Positions 28,618-50,278 of a stretch of 64,000 nucleotides of DNA are shown in pieces. Origin of the DNA: Squalus acanthias (Eukaryota). Made by a program: the position numbers and the translations under genes. Where the stretch lies: positions 2,544,001 to 2,608,000 of the forward strand of contig JASTWF010000033.1 of assembly GCA_030390025.1 (NCBI GenBank). Reading direction: 5' to 3'. The notes under the pieces were generated by a model. The model saw nothing but the letters and a program-made list of their open reading frames with translations, made no database searches and was not told the origin of the DNA. Position 1 is the stretch's first letter; each line of letters starts with the position of its first letter.

Positions 28618-29519
28618 TTATTTTATAATCTTAGAAAGTACAGTGAAGGGATATTTCACCCCATTCTTCAGCTCCTCTCTGAACTTACTCTGGGTCACGG
28701 CATAAATAAAAGTGTTTGTGCAGCAACTCAGGAGCTGGAGCATAAACCCAATTTCTCGTACAATATTGGGGAGCTCAGCAATAGGGAACTCGCTCACCAG
28801 AACAATTCTAGTATACATCGTATTGAGCACGAGCACAGCCCATAGAAGGATAAAATTCCCCGAGATCACAAAAATTACAGTAATTGATTTTCTTCTGCTT
28901 TTTGTCTCTGGATCGCTGGGACTCTCCCCACTGACCCGGTCCCGAAGTTTCTTCCGAATTCTGATGGTCACTAAAATGTGTCTGACAGTTAAAACATTGA
29001 GCATCAGAATCAGAATAAATGGTACACACGGGGTGAAAATGTAATGTAGAAATTCAATTGCTGTCCATACTGGTGAATACATAACACTGTAGGTCATAGC
29101 GCAGAACCAGGGAACTCTCATTAGCATATAGTTGCCTGTAACCATAAAGTACCAGAAAATGTTCTTCACACAGAACAACACAGTCATTGTTCCAATAACC
29201 ACCGCCGCCGATTTCTCGGTGCAATATTTGTTTTTTAGCTTCTGGCAACAAATGGCCACAAATCGATCAAAGGTGAAAGAGACGGTGAACCAGACAGAAC
29301 AGTCTGTGGCTGCATAAAGAAGGACGGCGTGAATGTTACACACGGGAATGTCGAACAGAAAGTGAAACCTCGTATAATAAACAATGGGGATGCGCCTCAT
29401 TATCAGATCGAGGATAACGACCAGTAGATCCGCCGCTGCCATGGCCACCAGGTACCGAGTGACACATTTGGAGAGGCCACACTTTCCCCGAGACAGGATC
29501 ACAATCGTCACTATGTTAA
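28618..29519 (-). CDS. GPR139/GPR142-like class A orphan GPCR, exon 2
   Basis: YLVAMAAADLL (TM2), FTFDRFVAIC (TM3), SCCTNTFIY (TM7); pyrimidine tract plus ttacAG acceptor at 29520-29521; phase matches exon 1. Confidence 0.9.
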
Positions 29520-29877
29520 CTGTAAGGAAGGGGTGGGAAAGGGAAATTACACATCAGGATGGGAGCAGAAATATCAGTGTCGTGGATCAATGGATGTAAT
29601 TTACTGAAAGCTCACAACATCCCGTGATGGAATCCGATGTCACAGAACTTCATGTTAGAGCTAAGACTTCAAGTCAACTGTCAGCAAGGTCTGATCAAAT
29701 TGGATAAATAAACATGAAAATAACACGGTTATATTTATTCAGAAATGTCCAACAACAGAATGTGGTTTGCCCTAATGAACAAAGAGTAAACACACTGACT
29801 GGTGCCAACAAAACCTGATGGTGCTGACAGAAGGTCCCACGGTCAAATCTGGGCCTAGTCAGTTACAACTGGAATCA

Positions 29878-39785: not shown

Positions 39786-42700
39786 AATCAGAATAGAGAG
39801 AACAGGATAGTGAGATTGAATACGTGGCTTGAGCAGTGGTGCAGGAGGGAGGGATTCAAATTCCTGAGGCATTGGAACCAGTTCTGGGGGAAGTGGGACC
39901 TGTACAAAAGGGACGGTCTGCACTTGGGCAGGACTGGAACCGATGTCCTCGGGGTAATATTTGCTAAAGCAGTTCGGGAGGATTTAAACTAATATGGCAG
40001 GGGAATGGGAACCTATGTAGCGAAACAGGGGGAAGTAATATGCAGTCAGAAACAAATGTTAGAAGGGTGAGAAACAATAGGGGAAGGCCGAGTAAACAAA
40101 GGCAAGAAACACAAAGGGCCATACTAAATCATAAGTCTAAAAGGACAAAGGATGTTAATAAAACAAGCCTAAAGGCTCTGTGTCTTAATGCAAGGAGTAT
40201 CCGTAATAAGGTGGATGAATTGACTGTGCAAATAGATGTTAACGGATACGATGTGATTGGGATTACAGAGACATGGCTCCAGAACAATCAAGGCTGGGAA
40301 CTGAACATCCAGGGGTATTCAACATTCAGAAAGGATAGAGTAAAAGGAAAAGGGGGAAGGGTAGCATTGCTGGTTAAAGAGGAGATTAATGCAATAGCTA
40401 GGAAGGACATCAGCTTGGAGGATGTGGAATCAATATGGGTTGAGCTGCAGAACACCAAAGGGCAGAAAACGTTAGTGGGAGTTGTGTACAGACCTCCAAA
40501 CAGCAGTAGTGAGGTGGGGGAGGGTATGAAACAGGAAATCAGAGGTGCGTGCAAAAAAGGCACGGCAGTTAACATGGGTGACTTTAATATGCATATAGAT
40601 TGGGCTACTCAAACTGGAAGCAATACGGTGGAGGAGGATTTCCTGGAGTGTTTAAGGGATGGTTTCCTAAACCAATATGTTGAGGAACCAACTCGAGGGG
40701 AGGCCATCCTGGACTGGGTGTTGTGTAATGAGGAAGGACTAATCAGCAATCTTGTGGTACGAGGCCCCCTGGGGAAGAGTGACCATAGTATGGTGGAGTT
40801 CTACATTAGGATGGAGAAGGCAACAGTTAAGTCAGAGACCATGGTCCAGAACTTAAATAAGGGCAACTTTGAGGGTATGAGGCGTGAGTTGGCGAGGTTA
40901 AATTGGCAAGCGATATTTAAGGGGCTATCAGTGGAAGGGCAATGGCAGACATTTAGAGATCGCATGGATGAACTACAACAATTGTACATCCCGGTCTGGC
41001 GTAAAAATAAAAAAGGGAAGGTGGCTCAACCATGGCTAACAAGGGAAATCAGGGATAGTATTAAAACCAAGGAAGTTGCATACAAATTTGCCAGAAGTAG
41101 CAGCAAACCCGGGGTCTGGGAGAACTTCAAAACTCAGCAGAGGAGGACGAAGGGTTTGATTAGGGCAGGGAAAATAAAATATGAAAGGAAGCTTGCAGAG
41201 AACATTAAAATGGACTGCAAAAGCTTCTATAAATATGTAAAAAGAAAGAGGTTAGTAAAAACAAATGTAGGTCCCCTGCAGTCGGAAACAGGGGAAGTCG
41301 TAATGGGGAACAAGGAAATGGCAGATCAATTGAACAAGTACTTTGGTTCGGTGTTTACTGTGGAGGACACACACAACCTGCCGGAAATAAAAGGGGTCAG
41401 AGGATCTGGTAAGAGGGAGGAGCTGAAGGAAATCCTTATTAGTCGGGAAAAGGTATTGGGGAAATTGATGGGACTGAAGGCTGAAAAATCCCCAGGGCCT
41501 GATGGTCTGCATCCCAGAGTACTAAAGGAGGTGGCCTTGGAAATAGTGGATGCATTGATGATCATTTTCCAACATTCCTTAGACTCTGGATCAGTTCCGA
41601 TGGAGTGGAGGGGGGCCAATGTAACCCCTCTTTTTAAAAAAGGAGGGAGGGAGAAAGCAGGGAATTATAGACCGGTCAGCCTGACATCGGTCGTGGGTAA
41701 AATGATGGAATCAATTATTAAAGATGTCATAACAGACCATTTGGAAAGTGGCGACATGATAGGTACAAGTCAGCAAGGATTTGTGAAAGGGAAATCATGC
41801 TTGACAAATCTTCTGGAATTTTTTGAGGATGTTTCCAATAGGGTGGACAGGGGGGAACCAGTAGATGTGGTGTATTTGGACTTTCAGAAGGCCTTCGACA
41901 AGGTCCCACACAAGAGATTGGTGAGCAAAGTTAAAGCACATGGGATTGGGGGTAATGTGTTGACGTGGATTGAGAACTGGTTGGCACACAGGAAACAAAG
42001 AGTAGGAGTAAATGGGTACTTTTCAGAATGGCAGGCAGTGACCAGCGGGGTACGGCAGGGTTCGGTGCTGGGACCCCAGCTGTTTACATTATATATTAAT
42101 GATTTGGACGAAGGGATTAATTGTAATATCTCCAAATTTGCGGATGACACTAAATTGGGAGGCAGTGTGAACAATGAAGAGGATGCTAGGAGGCTACAGA
42201 GTGACTTGGACAGGTTGGGTGAATGGGCAGATGAAGTACAATGTGGATAAATGTGAGGTTATCCACTTTGGTGGTAAAATAGAGAGGCGTACTTTTACCT
42301 GAATGGTGGCAGATTAGGGAAAGGGGAGGTGCAACGAGACCTGGGCGTCATGGTACATCAGTCACTGAAGGTGGGAATGCAAGTGCAGCAGGCAGTCAAG
42401 AAAGCAAACGGAATGATGGCCTTCATAGTAAGGGGATTTGAGTACAGGAGTAGGGAGGTGATGCTACAGTTGTACAGGCCCTTGGTGAGGCCACACCTGG
42501 AGTATTGTGCGCAGTTTTGTTCTCCTAACTTAAGGAAGGACATTCTTGCTGTTGAGGGAGTGCAGCGAAGGTTCACTAGATTGATTCCTGGGATGGCCGG
42601 ACTGACATATCAAGAAAGATTGGGTCAACTGAACTTGTATCCTCTGGAGTTCAGAAGAATGAGGGGGGATCTTATAGAGACATTTAAAATCCTGACTGGT

Positions 42701-43790: not shown

Positions 43791-45448
43791 TGTAGAATTC
43801 GCAATATAATCGCGATTTTATAAATAAGAAGGAGACACATAGTTTCGTTCAAACAGCTTTATTTCAGCAGAATGCTGTCAGGTTTTCAAAGTTAACACAA
43901 GCAGCCTGTAAAATGGCCGCCAAATCTCGTGGCAGTACATTCTAGACTTTTCGATAAGCAGACAAGATGGCGTTCCAATAAACATTTGTGCGAGATCGAT
44001 CAAGACTCAGCACATTTGAGATAATACACAAGACATAATGGGTTTGCATTTTACACATAAATACTGGAATCGGTCTCCCAGGTGCGAATAAGGGCTATTG
44101 TACCAAGCGATCAAGAACCCATCCAAAGACATTAATATGCAAAATCCCCACGACTCTACGATGAGAGAGCCGTTTGCGGGTAGTTACAGAAACATTTGGA
44201 AGCCCCAAAACCCCTCCAGGGAGAATACTGACCGGTTACACAATGGGAGAAGTATTAACGGGTACTCAGACAGTTACAAGTATCACCGAAACCCATTAAA
44301 CGGAGATCACCCTATACAAGAAGTTTGAGCGCCAAAACTCTGACAAAAGAAAATACATTAAGATTGGGCGGGAAAAGAGGAATCTCAGCACAATAACTGT
44401 AAGCTACAACCGTCCATCTCTCTCTTATTCTCCTGCCTCTTGCCGCTTGTATCGTGCCTCTGCCTCTTGCAGCTTTTAAAGACTATCGAACTTTCTGATC
44501 CGCCAGGATCAGCCTCGTGGCTTGCCGTGAAGATCTGTGTGGAACCGGGCTGTGAAGCCTTGAAACGGGCACACCATCCCGAGAAGTTGGTAAACGGTGT
44601 TGGAACCGAAGGCCCGAGATGAGATGAGATGAGATGAGATGAGAAGAGAAGAAGACGACCATACGTATCGCCACGGTCAGTAAGCCCCGACCGCGCCTGT
44701 AGGTCGAATAGACACTTTCCTTGCCCAGGAAGACTATCTTTTGAGTTTTACAGAACTGGCATCGGAAGACCATTCTTCGAGTTTTATCGCATCGGGGCGA
44801 GGGCACAGGAAGACTATTCTTTGAGTCGTATCGGAACTCCGAGGACAACACAGATCTTCATGACAGCAGACGGTCCAGCCTGCTAGCCGGAGCAGAAACG
44901 AGTAAACAAGTGGGGTACAGAGACCCCTGATCAACACGTGGGTGGTCAGGTGCTGCGGTAAAAACATCCGAGCAGAGTTTTCGGAATTCTCCGAGTTATC
45001 ACGAGTGATGAGCATGAGTCTCGATCCTACAAATCTAGTTTAGAACAGGTATTGATAGGGGAGGGTTTAAGTTTTAAGGTTAATTGTAATGTGTGCCCCC
45101 TTTTACGATGTGTCGTTCGCTCCTCGTTTCCCTAAAATTAGTTACATAACTGCGTGTAAGATTGTAGTGTCATTAATCTGTGCTTATGACATGTATTTCG
45201 TAATCTTGAATAATATGCAATAAAGATTTTCCATTTCGCACCATTCAACCGGGTCTACCTGAGTTTTCTCTCCATTATTGCTCTCGCATCTAAGTCCAGT
45301 GTCAGAACCGTAAGGGCGAGTGGGTCGAACCACTCACAGGTGTCTGGTGCTCCCAGGCTGGCTGGAGACCAGAACAGGCAACAAGGCCTAACCTCGCACT
45401 AGCACCCAGGCTGAGCACAGAGCCACAGGCGTGTCCAAAACCCTTACA
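43791..45448. mobile_element. 1.66-kb solo LTR-like insertion
   Basis: TGTA...TACA termini; interrupts spacer tggtc|acaag; AATAAA at 45219; no long ORF. Confidence 0.7.
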
Positions 45449-45524
45449 GACACAAGCGGGTAAGAGACAGACAGAGCGGCTCTGACCCCGCGAGATGGGC
45501 AAAAGGCTCAGGAGTAATTGCATC

Positions 45525-48500
45525 TGTCATAAATCGCAAGTAACAACTCAGGAAGTACTACTGGGTGGCCAGCTGGGGCGCCGTCCAGGGAGTATAAATA
45601 CTCAGGCATGGGCCCACCTTGGGCAGAGACAATCTGGAAACAGGAAGCTAGTGACTGCTAACTAGACCTCCATGTTTTGTTACAAGTTGATTAAAGCCTT
45701 GCTTTATGTTCAAGTGCGTAGTGAGTCTTTATTACGTCAAATTAATCAACTTGATATCGTCTCCACGCTTTGGGTGATTCGGAACAACCAGCTGCAACTC
45801 GAACCACAGAAGGGAACTTGGGCAAGAAACTGATCCATCATGGAAAAACTCCTTAGACCCGCTCGTCTCGACCTGGACCCGAATGCACCTGCGGCAGCAA
45901 AGGTATGGAAGCATTGGTTTCGTACCTTTAGCAACTTTCTTGAAGAATGTGGGGCGGATGTCCCTAATAAGTTACGAATGCTTATCAACTACGTGTCTCC
46001 TCATGTGTATGATTATATTGAGGACTGTATAGACTATGACACTGCTATCGAAATCTTACAGCAGCTATATGTCAAGTCCCCAAATGAAATCTTTGCTCGA
46101 CACCTACTGGCCACAACTCGGCAGCAGCCTGGGGAATCACTCGATGAATTTCTCCAGAAACTTCGCAGGCTCAGCAAGGATTGTCACCTTAAAGCAGTTT
46201 CAGCTGAACAGTATCAAGAGGAACTAATCCGCGATTCCTTTATCAATGGAATCGCGTCCCCTTTTATACGTCAGCGCCTGCTGGAAAATAAAACCCTCAA
46301 TTTACGGGCTGCTTATGACCAGGCGTGTTCCTTGGACTTGGCCAAGAAAAATGCAGACACTTATCTCCCACCACGTGCACGGGCGGCGGCTATCTCCTTT
46401 AATGAGTCTTTCGGTAGGTCTCGGGCGGATGCCCCCACTGATGTCGACTCTACTCTAAGAGACGACGACCCTACCCTAGAGGCCTTCGCTGATGACGACC
46501 CCGCCCTAGCAGCATCCTGGCAATCAGGAAGAAAGTGTTTCTTTTGTGGAGGGGCGTGCCATCACAGAAAATTTTGCCCGGCTCGTAATGTGACCTGCAA
46601 TCATTGCAGCAAGAAAGGACACTTTTCCAAGGTATGCCAGTCACGGGCCTTTGCTAACAAGAAAGGCCGCTCCTCTAAAGTATACCGGTCGAGAGCTCCT
46701 GTTAGCTTCACAGCTGCTATCTGTGGAGCTGCTCCTCCCCCAAGAACTACTGTTAAGGCTACAGTTGCCGAAGGGAAAATTGCCCCTCCTCCCATCACGG
46801 CTGTTTTTCCCCAAAGTTTGTCCCATGCAGCCACGAAGGTTTCAGTAAATGGGCACACTCTAAGCGCGCTAATCGACTCCTGCAGCTCTGACAGCTTCAT
46901 TAGTAAGCAGGCTGTCAACAGGTTAAAACTGCACATTTATCCCTCGGACAGGGAGATTGCAATGGCTCTGACGACTCTGACCACCAATTCTTCTGGCTTC
47001 TGTCTGGTCAACCTCATCCTCAACGGCCGCACGTATCTCTCCACCCGGCTCGGAGTACTCGCAAACTTATGCAGCGATGTGCTTCTGGGACAGGACTTCC
47101 AGAAGCAGCACAAGAAGATCACTTTTGAGTTTGGAGGGTCAAGGCCGGAGCTTACCATTTCTAAGGTGCCGTTTTGTGCACTCTCGGCGGCCTTACTCGG
47201 TGAACCCTCCCTGTTTGCCAATCTTCCCCCCCGCTGTAAACCCATAGCCACCAAATCGCGGCGCTTTAGCCAAGACGATCGAGCGTTTATTGAGGCGGAA
47301 ATCTCTCGCCTTTTAGTCGACGGTATTATCGAGCCATGTTCATCTCCCTGGCGGGCTCAGGTCGTCATCGTGAGGAATCCCTTAAAACAAAATAAAAAAC
47401 GTCTGTGTATCGATTATTCGCAGACTATTAATCTATATACCGATCTGGATGCCTACCCGCTGCCACGCATAGATGACATGGTCAACAACCTTGCCAAATA
47501 CAAGGTATTCTCGACCTTCGATTTAAAAAGCGCGTACCATCAGGTGCCACTGCAAGACTCCGACAAGAAGTATACGGCCTTTGAGGCCAATGGTCGGCTT
47601 TTCCAGTTTCGCCGCCTTCCATTCGGGGTCACCAATGGGGTGGCCGTCTTCCAACGGGCCATGGATGGCCTAGTCCAGCAAGAGAACTTGACGGATACCT
47701 TTCCGTATTTAGACAATATCACTATTGCCGGCCATGATCAAAAGGAGCATGACGCCAATATTCAGAGATTTTTTTACGTACTCCGCCGTCGCCACTTAAC
47801 GTTAAACGAAACCAAATCGGTGAAGTCGGTGCCATCGGTGAACATTCTTGGCTACTGGGTGGGCAACGGTGTTATTAAACCGGACCCAGAGCGACTTCGT
47901 CCACTTCAGGAGCTCCCTCCCCCGACGAACCTCGGCTTTCTTCGTCGGGCACTTGGCATGTTTGCTTATTACGCAAAATGGATACCACACTTCTCCGATA
48001 AAATACAGCCCCTGCTCCATGCGAAGTCTTTTCCATTGGAAGCTACGGCTACTTCTGCCTTCAACCTCCTCAAACGACAGCTGGAGAAAGCCACGCTTCG
48101 CTCCATTGACGAAAATCTTCCTTTTGTGGTCGAATGCGATGCATCGGAGGTGGCGATCTCCGCTACCTTGAATCAAGGTGGCCGACCCGTGGCATTCCTA
48201 TCCAGAACCTTGCAGGGTAGCGAGCTCCATTACCACCCCGTCGAGAAGGAGGCTACGGCCATCATCGAGGCTGTACGCCAATGGGGTAATTTTCTTGCTC
48301 GGCGTCATTTTACGCTTATAACTGACCAGCGCTCTGTGGCCTTCATGTTGGATAACCGGAGGCGCACGAAAATCAAAAATAATAAAATTCAACTCTGGAG
48401 GATGGAGCTGGCTGCCTTTGGATATACTATCTGTTACCGACCCGGCAAACAGAACGTGGACCCAGATACCTTCACACGGGCATTTTGCTCCTCAATGTCA

Positions 48501-50034
48501 ATGTCGACTCTGTCGGATTTGCATATGGACTTATGCCATCCTGGTGTGACCCGCATGTTGCACTTTGTGCACTCCAAAAATCTACCATTTTCAACCGAGG
48601 ACGTAAAGAAAACATGCTCCTCCTGTAGGATTTGTGCAGAATTGAAACCACAATTCTTTCGCCCATCAGATGGCTTACTCATACATGCAATGCAGCCTAT
48701 GCAGAGGCTCAGCATAGACTTTAAAGGGCCATTGCCTTCGTCGACAAGGAACACCTACCTACTTACGATGGTGGACGAGTATTCACGCTTTCCCTTCGCC
48801 TTCCCCTGCCCTAATATGCTTACCTCTACGGTAATTAAATGCCTCGATCAGGTCTTTTCCCTTTGCGGGACGGCCAATTTTATCCACACTGATCGGGGTC
48901 CCTCCTTTATGTCGAGTGAACTTAAAAGTTATCTCTCCCAACGGGGAATCGCCTCAAGTAGGACGACACCATATCACCCAATCGGTAACGGACAGGTTGA
49001 ACGATACAATGCCATCATCTGGAACGCTGTCCGTCTGGCACTAAGGTCACGCAACCTGCCGGACCAGCAGTTGGAAACGGTGCTCCCCGACGCGTTACAC
49101 TCTATCAGGTCTCTTCTCTCCACATCTACTAATGTCACGCCTCATGAGCGATTCTTCAAATTCCGGCGTCGCTCTACACATGGGACGTCTCTACCGTCAT
49201 GGTTGGTGGCTCCAGGCCCAGTACTACTCCGGAGGTTCGTCCGGTCTGCCAAAAACGACCCTCTCGTTGACGAGGTGGAGTTAACGGAGGTAAACCCCAC
49301 GTATGCGCACGTACGGTACCCTGATGGCCGGGAGACCACCGTCTCGCTCCGAGATCTGGCTCCCTGCCCAACCGGTCACACGGGCCCGAATGATGAAGGA
49401 TCCACCGACAATGATATCAACACTCCGCACCCCTATGAAAATGACGCCCCGCCTGGGACATCGGGGGATCTGCCGGCAACGCTACCGGATCAACTCAGGG
49501 AGCTGGACGCTCCCCGTAGGATGGCCACCCGAAACCAGGACGCCGGACAATCTCCAGCCACGACCCGGGATGAGGCCAGATCAGCACCTGTGGGGACCCG
49601 CACACGGAGTCATGATATTCCCAGTCCTCCACAGGATGATCAAGATGACGCGGACTCTAGTGACTTACCGGTACGGGCCAAGCGACCCAGGGACCAGGAC
49701 ACGGTCTGGGGAGACGTGCCTTCCAGTCACAAGCAGAGAGCTAAACGTCTGTGGCTATTTCTGGTCCGCCTAGTCCGTTAAAGGAAGACTGGACTTCCAA
49801 ACCTTTTCGGGAGGAAGAATGTCATAAATCGCAAGTAACAACTCAAAAAGTACTACTGGGTGGCCAGCTGGGGCGCCGTCCAGGGAGTATAAATACTCAG
49901 GCATGGGCCCACCTTGGGCAGAGACAATCTGGAAACAGGAAGCTAGTGACTGCTAACTAGACCTCCATGTTTTGTTACAAGTTGATTAAAGCCTTGCTTT
50001 ATGTTCAAGTGCGTAGTGAGTCTTTATTACGTCA
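45525..50034 (+). mobile_element. Full-length Ty3/Gypsy LTR retrotransposon
   Basis: 215-bp TG..CA LTRs 45525-45739 and 49820-50034 (2 differences); 5-bp TSD gcatc; PPT gggaggaagaa 49809-49819. Confidence 0.97.
45840..49781 (+). CDS. Gypsy Gag-Pol polyprotein (1313 aa)
   Basis: Two CCHC-type knuckles, PR LIDSCSS, RT YLDN, RNase H CDAS, IN HHCC plus D,D,E; uninterrupted. Confidence 0.95.
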   Translation: MEKLLRPARLDLDPNAPAAAKVWKHWFRTFSNFLEECGADVPNKLRMLINYVSPHVYDYIEDCIDYDTAIEILQQLYVKSPNEIFARHLLATTRQQPGESLDEFLQKLRRLSKDCHLKAVSAEQYQEELIRDSFINGIASPFIRQRLLENKTLNLRAAYDQACSLDLAKKNADTYLPPRARAAAISFNESFGRSRADAPTDVDSTLRDDDPTLEAFADDDPALAASWQSGRKCFFCGGACHHRKFCPARNVTCNHCSKKGHFSKVCQSRAFANKKGRSSKVYRSRAPVSFTAAICGAAPPPRTTVKATVAEGKIAPPPITAVFPQSLSHAATKVSVNGHTLSALIDSCSSDSFISKQAVNRLKLHIYPSDREIAMALTTLTTNSSGFCLVNLILNGRTYLSTRLGVLANLCSDVLLGQDFQKQHKKITFEFGGSRPELTISKVPFCALSAALLGEPSLFANLPPRCKPIATKSRRFSQDDRAFIEAEISRLLVDGIIEPCSSPWRAQVVIVRNPLKQNKKRLCIDYSQTINLYTDLDAYPLPRIDDMVNNLAKYKVFSTFDLKSAYHQVPLQDSDKKYTAFEANGRLFQFRRLPFGVTNGVAVFQRAMDGLVQQENLTDTFPYLDNITIAGHDQKEHDANIQRFFYVLRRRHLTLNETKSVKSVPSVNILGYWVGNGVIKPDPERLRPLQELPPPTNLGFLRRALGMFAYYAKWIPHFSDKIQPLLHAKSFPLEATATSAFNLLKRQLEKATLRSIDENLPFVVECDASEVAISATLNQGGRPVAFLSRTLQGSELHYHPVEKEATAIIEAVRQWGNFLARRHFTLITDQRSVAFMLDNRRRTKIKNNKIQLWRMELAAFGYTICYRPGKQNVDPDTFTRAFCSSMSMSTLSDLHMDLCHPGVTRMLHFVHSKNLPFSTEDVKKTCSSCRICAELKPQFFRPSDGLLIHAMQPMQRLSIDFKGPLPSSTRNTYLLTMVDEYSRFPFAFPCPNMLTSTVIKCLDQVFSLCGTANFIHTDRGPSFMSSELKSYLSQRGIASSRTTPYHPIGNGQVERYNAIIWNAVRLALRSRNLPDQQLETVLPDALHSIRSLLSTSTNVTPHERFFKFRRRSTHGTSLPSWLVAPGPVLLRRFVRSAKNDPLVDEVELTEVNPTYAHVRYPDGRETTVSLRDLAPCPTGHTGPNDEGSTDNDINTPHPYENDAPPGTSGDLPATLPDQLRELDAPRRMATRNQDAGQSPATTRDEARSAPVGTRTRSHDIPSPPQDDQDDADSSDLPVRAKRPRDQDTVWGDVPSSHKQRAKRLWLFLVRLVR

Positions 50035-50278
50035 GCATCAATGAAATGTAGGCCCGGCCCCGAGAGAGGCAACATCCAGAGCACAGAAGGAAATCGATTT
50101 CAAGTGCATGCCTACCCGCACTTGCTGCCGTGGTTTCGCGAACACGTATTTTGTGTTCTCAACTAAAAAATGTCATTTTGTACGAACAGTTTGCCTGGCG
50201 CGAAAGTATCTGAATTTCAAAGGAGCACGCAGGAAAGACTGCCTTGCTGTGCTTTCTGGCAGGTAGCTTGATGTAGCT

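Follow-up and report, generated by a model that had tools for sequence, protein, structure and literature searches.

Complementarity between the LTR and the primer binding site suggests self-primed reverse transcription in a chromodomain-less Gypsy clade of animals

An intact Gypsy element with a putative self-primer

The 64,000-nucleotide stretch of Squalus acanthias DNA analysed here (the window) contains an intact Ty3/Gypsy retrotransposon at 45525-50034, with a putative pairing between its LTR and its primer binding site (PBS) at the 5' end. Judging from the sequence, this element very probably primes its own reverse transcription, whichever of two layouts its transcript has, and it is likely that a 13-nt arm of the LTR serves as the reverse-transcription primer in place of a tRNA throughout the clade. 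Self-priming had been put forward in an earlier note on this DNA, and it is well supported by covariation of LTR and PBS, both across the clade and within genomes, together with a hot spot of variation at the far edge of the PBS.

The window copy has the gag-PR-RT-RNase H-IN order, the TG...CA LTRs, the polypurine tract (PPT) and the target site duplication (TSD, in the 4-6 bp range) of Ty3/Gypsy elements, and the D/E/D/D residues are present in the RNase H domain of its ORF. A first look at the 3.7-Gb host genome gave 1364 candidate copies of the window family, and 663 exact matches to the LTR-PBS junction were counted. Most of 20 window-family copies show 0-3 differences between their two LTRs. 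The window family is a young, high-copy and clearly mobile Gypsy family without a chromodomain. Protein searches of the host genome for divergent sister families returned the window family alone, a search of viral contigs found no relative of the window element, and Rfam gave no match within 45400-46000; a search of the ESM Atlas led to unnamed Gag-like clusters. The parts of the element are as follows.

45520..45524 (+): 5' TSD, GCATC
45525..45739 (+): 5' LTR, 215 bp, TG...CA; differs from the 3' LTR at two positions
45593..45600 (+): TATA box TATAAATA; same letters in 19/19 older and 61/62 younger copies
45667..45676 (+): CC(T/G)CCATG motif, which we take to be YY1-like; shared with the relatives L072 and L081
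45683..45695 (+): LTR arm CAAGTTGATTAAA, predicted 13-nt self-primer; predicted cut after 45695
45690..45695 (+): ATTAAA, the sole canonical poly(A) hexamer of the LTR; last six bases of the arm
45696..45739 (+): loop of 44 nt, predicted to form hairpins at 45698-45714 and 45716-45737; putative template of minus strong-stop DNA
45741..45753 (+): PBS, one base past the LTR; paired at 12/13 positions in the window copy and 13/13 in other copies
45754 (+): hypervariable base adjoining the PBS, with A, G, C or T depending on the copy; the plus-strand copy of the primer is predicted to end here
45840..49781 (+): single gag-pol ORF of 1313 aa with two CCHC knuckles, protease, RT, RNase H and integrase
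47706-47717 (+): RT motif YLDN (P0001, aa 623-626)
49809..49819 (+): polypurine tract GGGAGGAAGAA
49820..50034 (+): 3' LTR
50035..50039 (+): 3' TSD, GCATC

Pairing between the LTR and the PBS

Within the 5' LTR, CAAGTTGATTAA (45683-45694) matches the reverse complement of TTAATCAACTTG (45742-45753) at all 12 nt, just as the earlier note had described; its further observations that no TGG follows the end of the LTR, at 45739, and that TATAAATA is present at 45593 are also correct. The match is not a chance one, because none of 4040 internal positions tested has a reverse-complement match to the LTR longer than 9 nt. At 45741 the window copy departs from its family: T occupies this position in all 20 other genomic copies fetched (the best matches), in 77 of 78 aligned copies and in the contigs assembled from three public runs. 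The pairing of the family therefore extends over 13 bp (45683-45695 with 45741-45753) rather than 12, and the overlap with ATTAAA that had previously been pointed out takes in the whole hexamer. A motif of the form A(A/T)TAAA occurs just once in the LTR, at 45690. When copy L094 was folded, the first 10 pairs of the helix had a pairing probability of at least 0.9, with the RNA starting at ~45625 or at 45683 alike.

Covariation within and between families

A pattern search for host-genome copies with an altered base at 45688 found 21 copies. In 19 of the 20 that carry C at this position, a compensating G is found in the PBS, so that the T-A pair is replaced by C-G. Copies with C at 45688 make up an older subfamily, and the lone exception groups among the young copies in the tree. 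In another host, both LTRs of L005 depart from those of L010 and L031 by a change for which the PBS has the matching counterpart. Matched single-base changes of this kind would be expected if the arm were recopied into the PBS in every cycle. Base changes in the PBS that track those in the LTR within one genome are changes that a fixed host RNA could not follow.

Related families were collected by a protein search, in which 294 homologs passed an E value of 1e-50; among the 120 of them listed there are crustacean, tunicate, cnidarian and flatworm records, and their length is mostly 1170-1260 aa. Scans of metagenome and genome contigs yielded 93 loci, 30 of which have a Gag start and at least 200 nt upstream of it. 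In an anchored pairing test of these 30 loci, 23 paired at 12-13 of 13 positions, four at 10-11 and three at 8 (L061, L065 and L067). Two of the latter, L065 and L067, resemble degraded copies of paired families, and at L061 a PBS-like motif was present and the arm was not found. For comparison between families, 22 representatives were used, comprising 20 of the 30 loci, the window family and the divergent L083, and omitting nine duplicate or degraded copies and L061.

The earlier note had asked for a check of whether LTR and PBS covary across related elements, and they do. Across the 22 representatives, which are partly non-independent given the close relationship of L001-L004, pairing of the PBS with the family's own LTR is retained with altered letters and reaches 12-13/13 in 19 (mean 12.5), as against 19 of 462 cross-family pairs at 12 or more. 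The observed pairing total was reached in none of 100,000 permutations (0/100,000). The representatives hold 21 distinct PBS sequences, which begin with T in 22/22, one base past CA, and with TTT in 21. The same LTR/PBS pairing was recognised by eye in L012 and L042.

The geometry of the pairing is also shared. Its partner strand begins exactly one base beyond the LTR in all paired families, and the extent of pairing among families has a constant 3' boundary and a variable 5' boundary (~10 to 18 bp). A PBS of the TGG type was found in none of the 22 families, and the same pipeline found ordinary TGG sites in outgroup Gypsy elements. Of the 22 families, 15 have a hairpin of at least 4 bp that begins right at the predicted cut, compared with 5.6 expected; in the window family the stem at the exact cut position has only 2 bp, and the hairpin is offset by 2 nt.

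A hypervariable base next to the PBS

In 20 older copies, which were chosen solely by their arm variant and are thus unbiased for this site, heterozygosity across 333 sites peaks at 45754 (A7 G6 C4 T2; 0.71 vs an average of 0.051), and among 1373 sites of 16 full-length older copies the same position again ranks first. Among 93 young copies, drawn from the first 100 of the 663 pattern matches, the base is A in 73, G in 18 and C in one, with an insertion in the remaining copy. Copies with G at 45754 are dispersed across the copy tree, on which 22 parsimony changes were counted at this site, an inflated figure given that non-A copies were enriched and the column was omitted from the tree. The site is not a CpG, base 13 of the PBS is invariant, and in a tRNA-primed family of the same genome the base after the PBS is invariant in 10/10 copies.

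The RT of Tf1 adds non-templated nucleotides to cDNA ends, and the PBS is copied to the cDNA 3' end (PMC11042837, PMC3185545). We infer that the 45754 hot spot may result from run-off of the RT from a 13-nt primer and addition of untemplated bases. The primer would be 13 nt long because plus-strand synthesis appears to terminate where the primer has a free 5' end, at 45683. A hot spot after the PBS could provide a means of reading primer length out of genome sequence alone.

Phylogenetic placement and RT motif

The RT-RNase H tree was built from 44 rows with a mixture model, and loci with a broken RT segment were omitted. Because the host genome yielded no chromovirus reference, algal and plant proxies bearing a chromodomain or SH3 domain were used for this group, and neither Tf1 nor sushi is among them. 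The clade forms one side of a 100/100 branch and has a long stem, while the deep branches are unresolved; the chromovirus proxies form a clade of their own (100/99), and a larger quick tree agrees for both clades. TGG-primed elements, with ~28-34% identity in RT-RNase H, branch apart from the clade. Neither a chromodomain nor the SH3 domain of Tf2-1 was detected in any of the 36 members scanned, which bears out the remark in the earlier note that the element shows no chromodomain. Its suggestion of independence from the chromoviruses held in part: the clade is not nested among the proxies, as grouping with the Closterium chromodomain element P0329 was rejected (p-AU 0.0002), but an independent origin was not established, since a sister relation to all chromoviruses was not rejected (p-AU 0.178).

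All 20 genomic copies carry YLDN instead of YxDD in the RT. Across 121 homologs the motif ends in DN in 82 and in DD in 36, compared with DD in all 72 scorable rows of 85 outgroup rows. For the reverse transcriptase of an active family, a YxDN active site is unusual.

The closest relative of the window family is the family of L011 and L086 (75% RT identity), whose copies differ in U3, yet have kept the ~45 nt upstream of the arm end. In L011 (2920-3070) and L086 (7350-7500), three tandem copies of the polypurine tract plus LTR start are present. The loci L081-L093 are animal Gypsy elements in contigs labelled as bacterial genome bins, which most likely reflects host contamination.

A proposed priming mechanism

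In the fold that we propose for the RNA, a helix between 45683-45695 and 45741-45753 encloses a loop with several hairpins; for this helix covariation is observed and the fold is predicted. The element's own RNase H, whose catalytic residues are present, would then cut after A45695, as in Tf1, leaving a 3' OH that faces U5, and minus strong-stop DNA would copy 45696-45740 only. Since the poly(A) hexamer closes the arm, the 3' LTR copy is expected to be polyadenylated 10-30 nt past the cut and would thereby provide the homology needed for the first jump. In plus-strand synthesis the PBS would be rewritten from the primer, keeping arm and PBS matched, and the RT would run off the primer 5' end at 45683, where untemplated bases could give rise to the variation at 45754.

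Such a mechanism could operate in two layouts, which differ in where the transcript begins. In the first, transcription would start near 45625, from the TATA at 45593, whose conservation among copies points to that start, and the RNA would be trimmed to 45683. In the second, the geometry is plainly that of Tf1: the transcript would start at 45683 itself, its first 13 nt would form the primer, a single cut would suffice, and the TATA at 45593 would be idle or serve another transcript. We slightly favour the start at ~45625 with trimming; the plain Tf1 geometry is quite possible, if on balance not what we expect. Mapping of one raw RNA-seq run placed 0 reads. The hot spot sets the 5' end of the primer at 45683 exactly, as the Tf1 geometry predicts, and a 5' tail on the primer would require a second processing step. 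TATA-like motifs in the placement that the Tf1 geometry requires, about 22-33 nt 5' of the arm, are carried by L009, L025 and L042, and PMC5341516 describes alternative start sites for Tf2, just one of which includes the self-primer. However, no conserved TATA or TATA-like motif was found near -30 of the arm in the window family or in most of the 30 LTRs, and the TATA instead stands at -90 in the window, at -62 in L072 and at -52 in L083. The layout of L072 resembles that of the window in that its TATA is followed by a CCGCCAT motif. A count by eye put a pyrimidine at the outermost 5' paired position of 16 of 20 families, in a region rich in T, whereas Pol II usually initiates at a purine.

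Sites resembling splice acceptors occur 5' of the arm in 5 of 22 families (3.3 expected) and, in a subsequent post hoc count, in 9 of 30 (4.3 expected, p=0.015); the same test found none in the window family. Strong polypyrimidine-plus-AG sites lie 18-34 nt upstream of the arm end in L012, L016, L036, L041, L043, L078 and L083, and as a weak lead these could capture host or trans-spliced leaders. High-depth contigs from public runs match the TATA region alone (45590-45621) and diverge on either side, which suggests another abundant repeat family with a common promoter piece.

It is possible, though doubtful, that self-priming arose independently in this animal Gypsy clade with a primer that is excised by two cuts from the interior of a longer leader and whose position is tied to the poly(A) signal. 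Were the doubly cut layout true, one hexamer would define both the primer end and the first-jump homology, and nothing 5' of the cut would template DNA, so that any upstream start would be usable, even that of a spliced host transcript. All of this would be done by an RT with a YxDN active site.

Alternatives to self-priming

Alternatively, the helix might have a regulatory role, masking the poly(A) signal of the 5' LTR in the manner of the HIV poly(A) hairpin, and another RNA might act as primer. The arm does end in canonical A(A/T)TAAA in 10 of the 22 families, with a one-letter variant in most of the others, and folding predicts that the 5' LTR hexamer is paired. Against this, a TGG or alternative primer site is absent near the LTR end, the stem partner keeps its place one base past the LTR in every paired family, and masking does not account for the hot spot at 45754. 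We consider this explanation improbable. Folding buries the hexamer of the 3' LTR too (probability unpaired ≤0.09 at 5/6 positions), and the predictions thus lend no support to selective masking. Thus, the masking proposed in the earlier note stands as far as the predicted pairing of the 5' hexamer, and falters on its selectivity and on the limited number of families with a canonical signal. Polyadenylation normally cleaves 10-30 nt beyond the hexamer, and the coupling of arm and hexamer appears to be better explained by the securing of 10-30 nt of first-jump homology than by masking.

Very improbable, in our view, is priming by the 3' end of the genomic RNA, which would lie at the arm of the 3' LTR and act on the PBS in a circle or dimer, with no internal cut. 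The arm ends in AAA, resembling the start of a trimmed poly(A) tail, and if RNase H removed the upstream RNA, the primer left would again be 13 nt long and a hot spot would be expected at the same place. Cleavage for polyadenylation would nevertheless usually fall 10-30 nt past the hexamer, and the conserved hairpin just after the arm suits a cut site within a longer RNA.

Finally, we regard it as extremely improbable that a host small RNA, such as a tRNA fragment, acts as primer and that the match to the LTR is of secondary importance. Half-tRNA primers are known in Copia lineages (PMC6317226), and the host tRNA set compared was incomplete (61 distinct sequences, only 7 named isotypes), but the best match of the PBS in this set is 8/13, the 21 PBS sequences follow their own LTRs, and single-base changes track within one genome.

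Relation to known systems

To our knowledge, tRNA-free priming is proven for fission-yeast Tf1 only, and in animals it has so far been linked to the Tf1/sushi group. In Tf1 the primer consists of the first 11 bases, which anneal to the PBS and are cut off from base 12 by RNase H (PMC7175516), and Tf1-like priming has been proposed for Tj1 of S. japonicus (PMC4600332). Self-priming is predicted for Tcn1 and for the Copia TAR lineage (PMC6317226), while the fungal GalEa and Skipper are tRNA-less without an LTR match (PMC5445492, PMC5006619).

The window clade resembles Tf1/Tf2 (Schizosaccharomyces pombe), Tj1, Tcn1 and sushi in having a PBS complementary to its own 5' LTR, with the predicted 3' OH toward U5, no tRNA site, the Ty3/Gypsy domain order and the RNase H catalytic residues. 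Unlike the Tf1/sushi chromoviruses, it has no chromodomain or SH3 domain, carries two CCHC knuckles and forms an RT clade separate from the proxies used for that group. In contrast to Tf1, its predicted primer is at least 13 nt long and ends on a poly(A)-signal-like WTAAA, and its spacer is a single base. The TATA far upstream in the window family and the YxDN motif in 82 of 121 homologs further distinguish it from Tf1/sushi. In self-primers of the Tf1/sushi group, the RNA is additionally structured next to the cut and ahead of the PBS. The window element likely works like Tf1, yet, judged against the proxies, is not a member of the Tf1/sushi group.

With the Mag lineage (A, B and C clades, SURL) the window clade shares short LTRs, the absence of a chromodomain, a wide metazoan spread and two CCHC knuckles, a trait of that lineage. 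It differs in that a tRNA PBS is absent, and the TGG-primed elements in the tree, which are Mag-like by their PBS only and include no named reference, branch apart. Cigr-1 of Ciona intestinalis, whose clade also occurs in molluscs, has a single gag-pol ORF of ~1210 aa in an element of ~4.2 kb. The window clade likewise has a single gag-pol ORF, mostly of 1170-1260 aa in its homologs, and from this likeness in size it may be the Cigr-1 clade. Cigr clades are named in the excerpted text of PMC6238403 and PMC3670739, which gives no priming data, and that of PMC3601003, PMC6934838, PMC2582038 and PMC3587641 contains nothing on the window clade.

Outside Tf1/sushi, self-priming has been inferred from LTR-PBS complementarity in the plant Copia TAR lineage, and a recurrent origin of self-priming is thus already on record (PMC6317226). 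This lineage differs from the window clade in belonging to the Copia superfamily and in its occurrence in plants, and a link to the poly(A) signal is not mentioned in the excerpted text (PMC6317226).

In the literature covered by full-text searches and paper excerpts, self-priming was unreported for a non-chromovirus animal Gypsy clade. Some Gypsy entries in Repbase are annotated as self-primed, so prior notice is possible. The mechanism would be a known one, in a lineage for which this literature gave no report of it. If the proposal is true, a non-chromovirus clade of this size, active in the recent past and found in vertebrates as well as many invertebrates, would imply that switching between tRNA and self primers is common. 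Elements primed in this way would evade control by 3' tRNA fragments, and PBS-based annotation of LTR elements would miss them.

Genomic surroundings

The element splits the first unit of a ~2.05-kb tandem array of tRNA-Phe, -Ile and -Glu genes that holds 18 genes between 43171 and 60561. Targeting of tRNA genes was considered on account of this position and rejected, as a tRNA gene lies near none of 20 other copies (~400 bp of flank per side). The same tRNA unit contains a second TG...CA insertion of ~1.66 kb at ~43792-45449, ~75 bp upstream of the element and with AATAAA near 45218, which is possibly a large solo LTR. Elsewhere in the window, several fragments of non-LTR (LINE-type) RT lie between 2563 and 42250, one of them with an endonuclease domain (39968-42247), and an intronless ORF of 311 aa on the minus strand (28621-29553) encodes a GPCR of the rhodopsin family.
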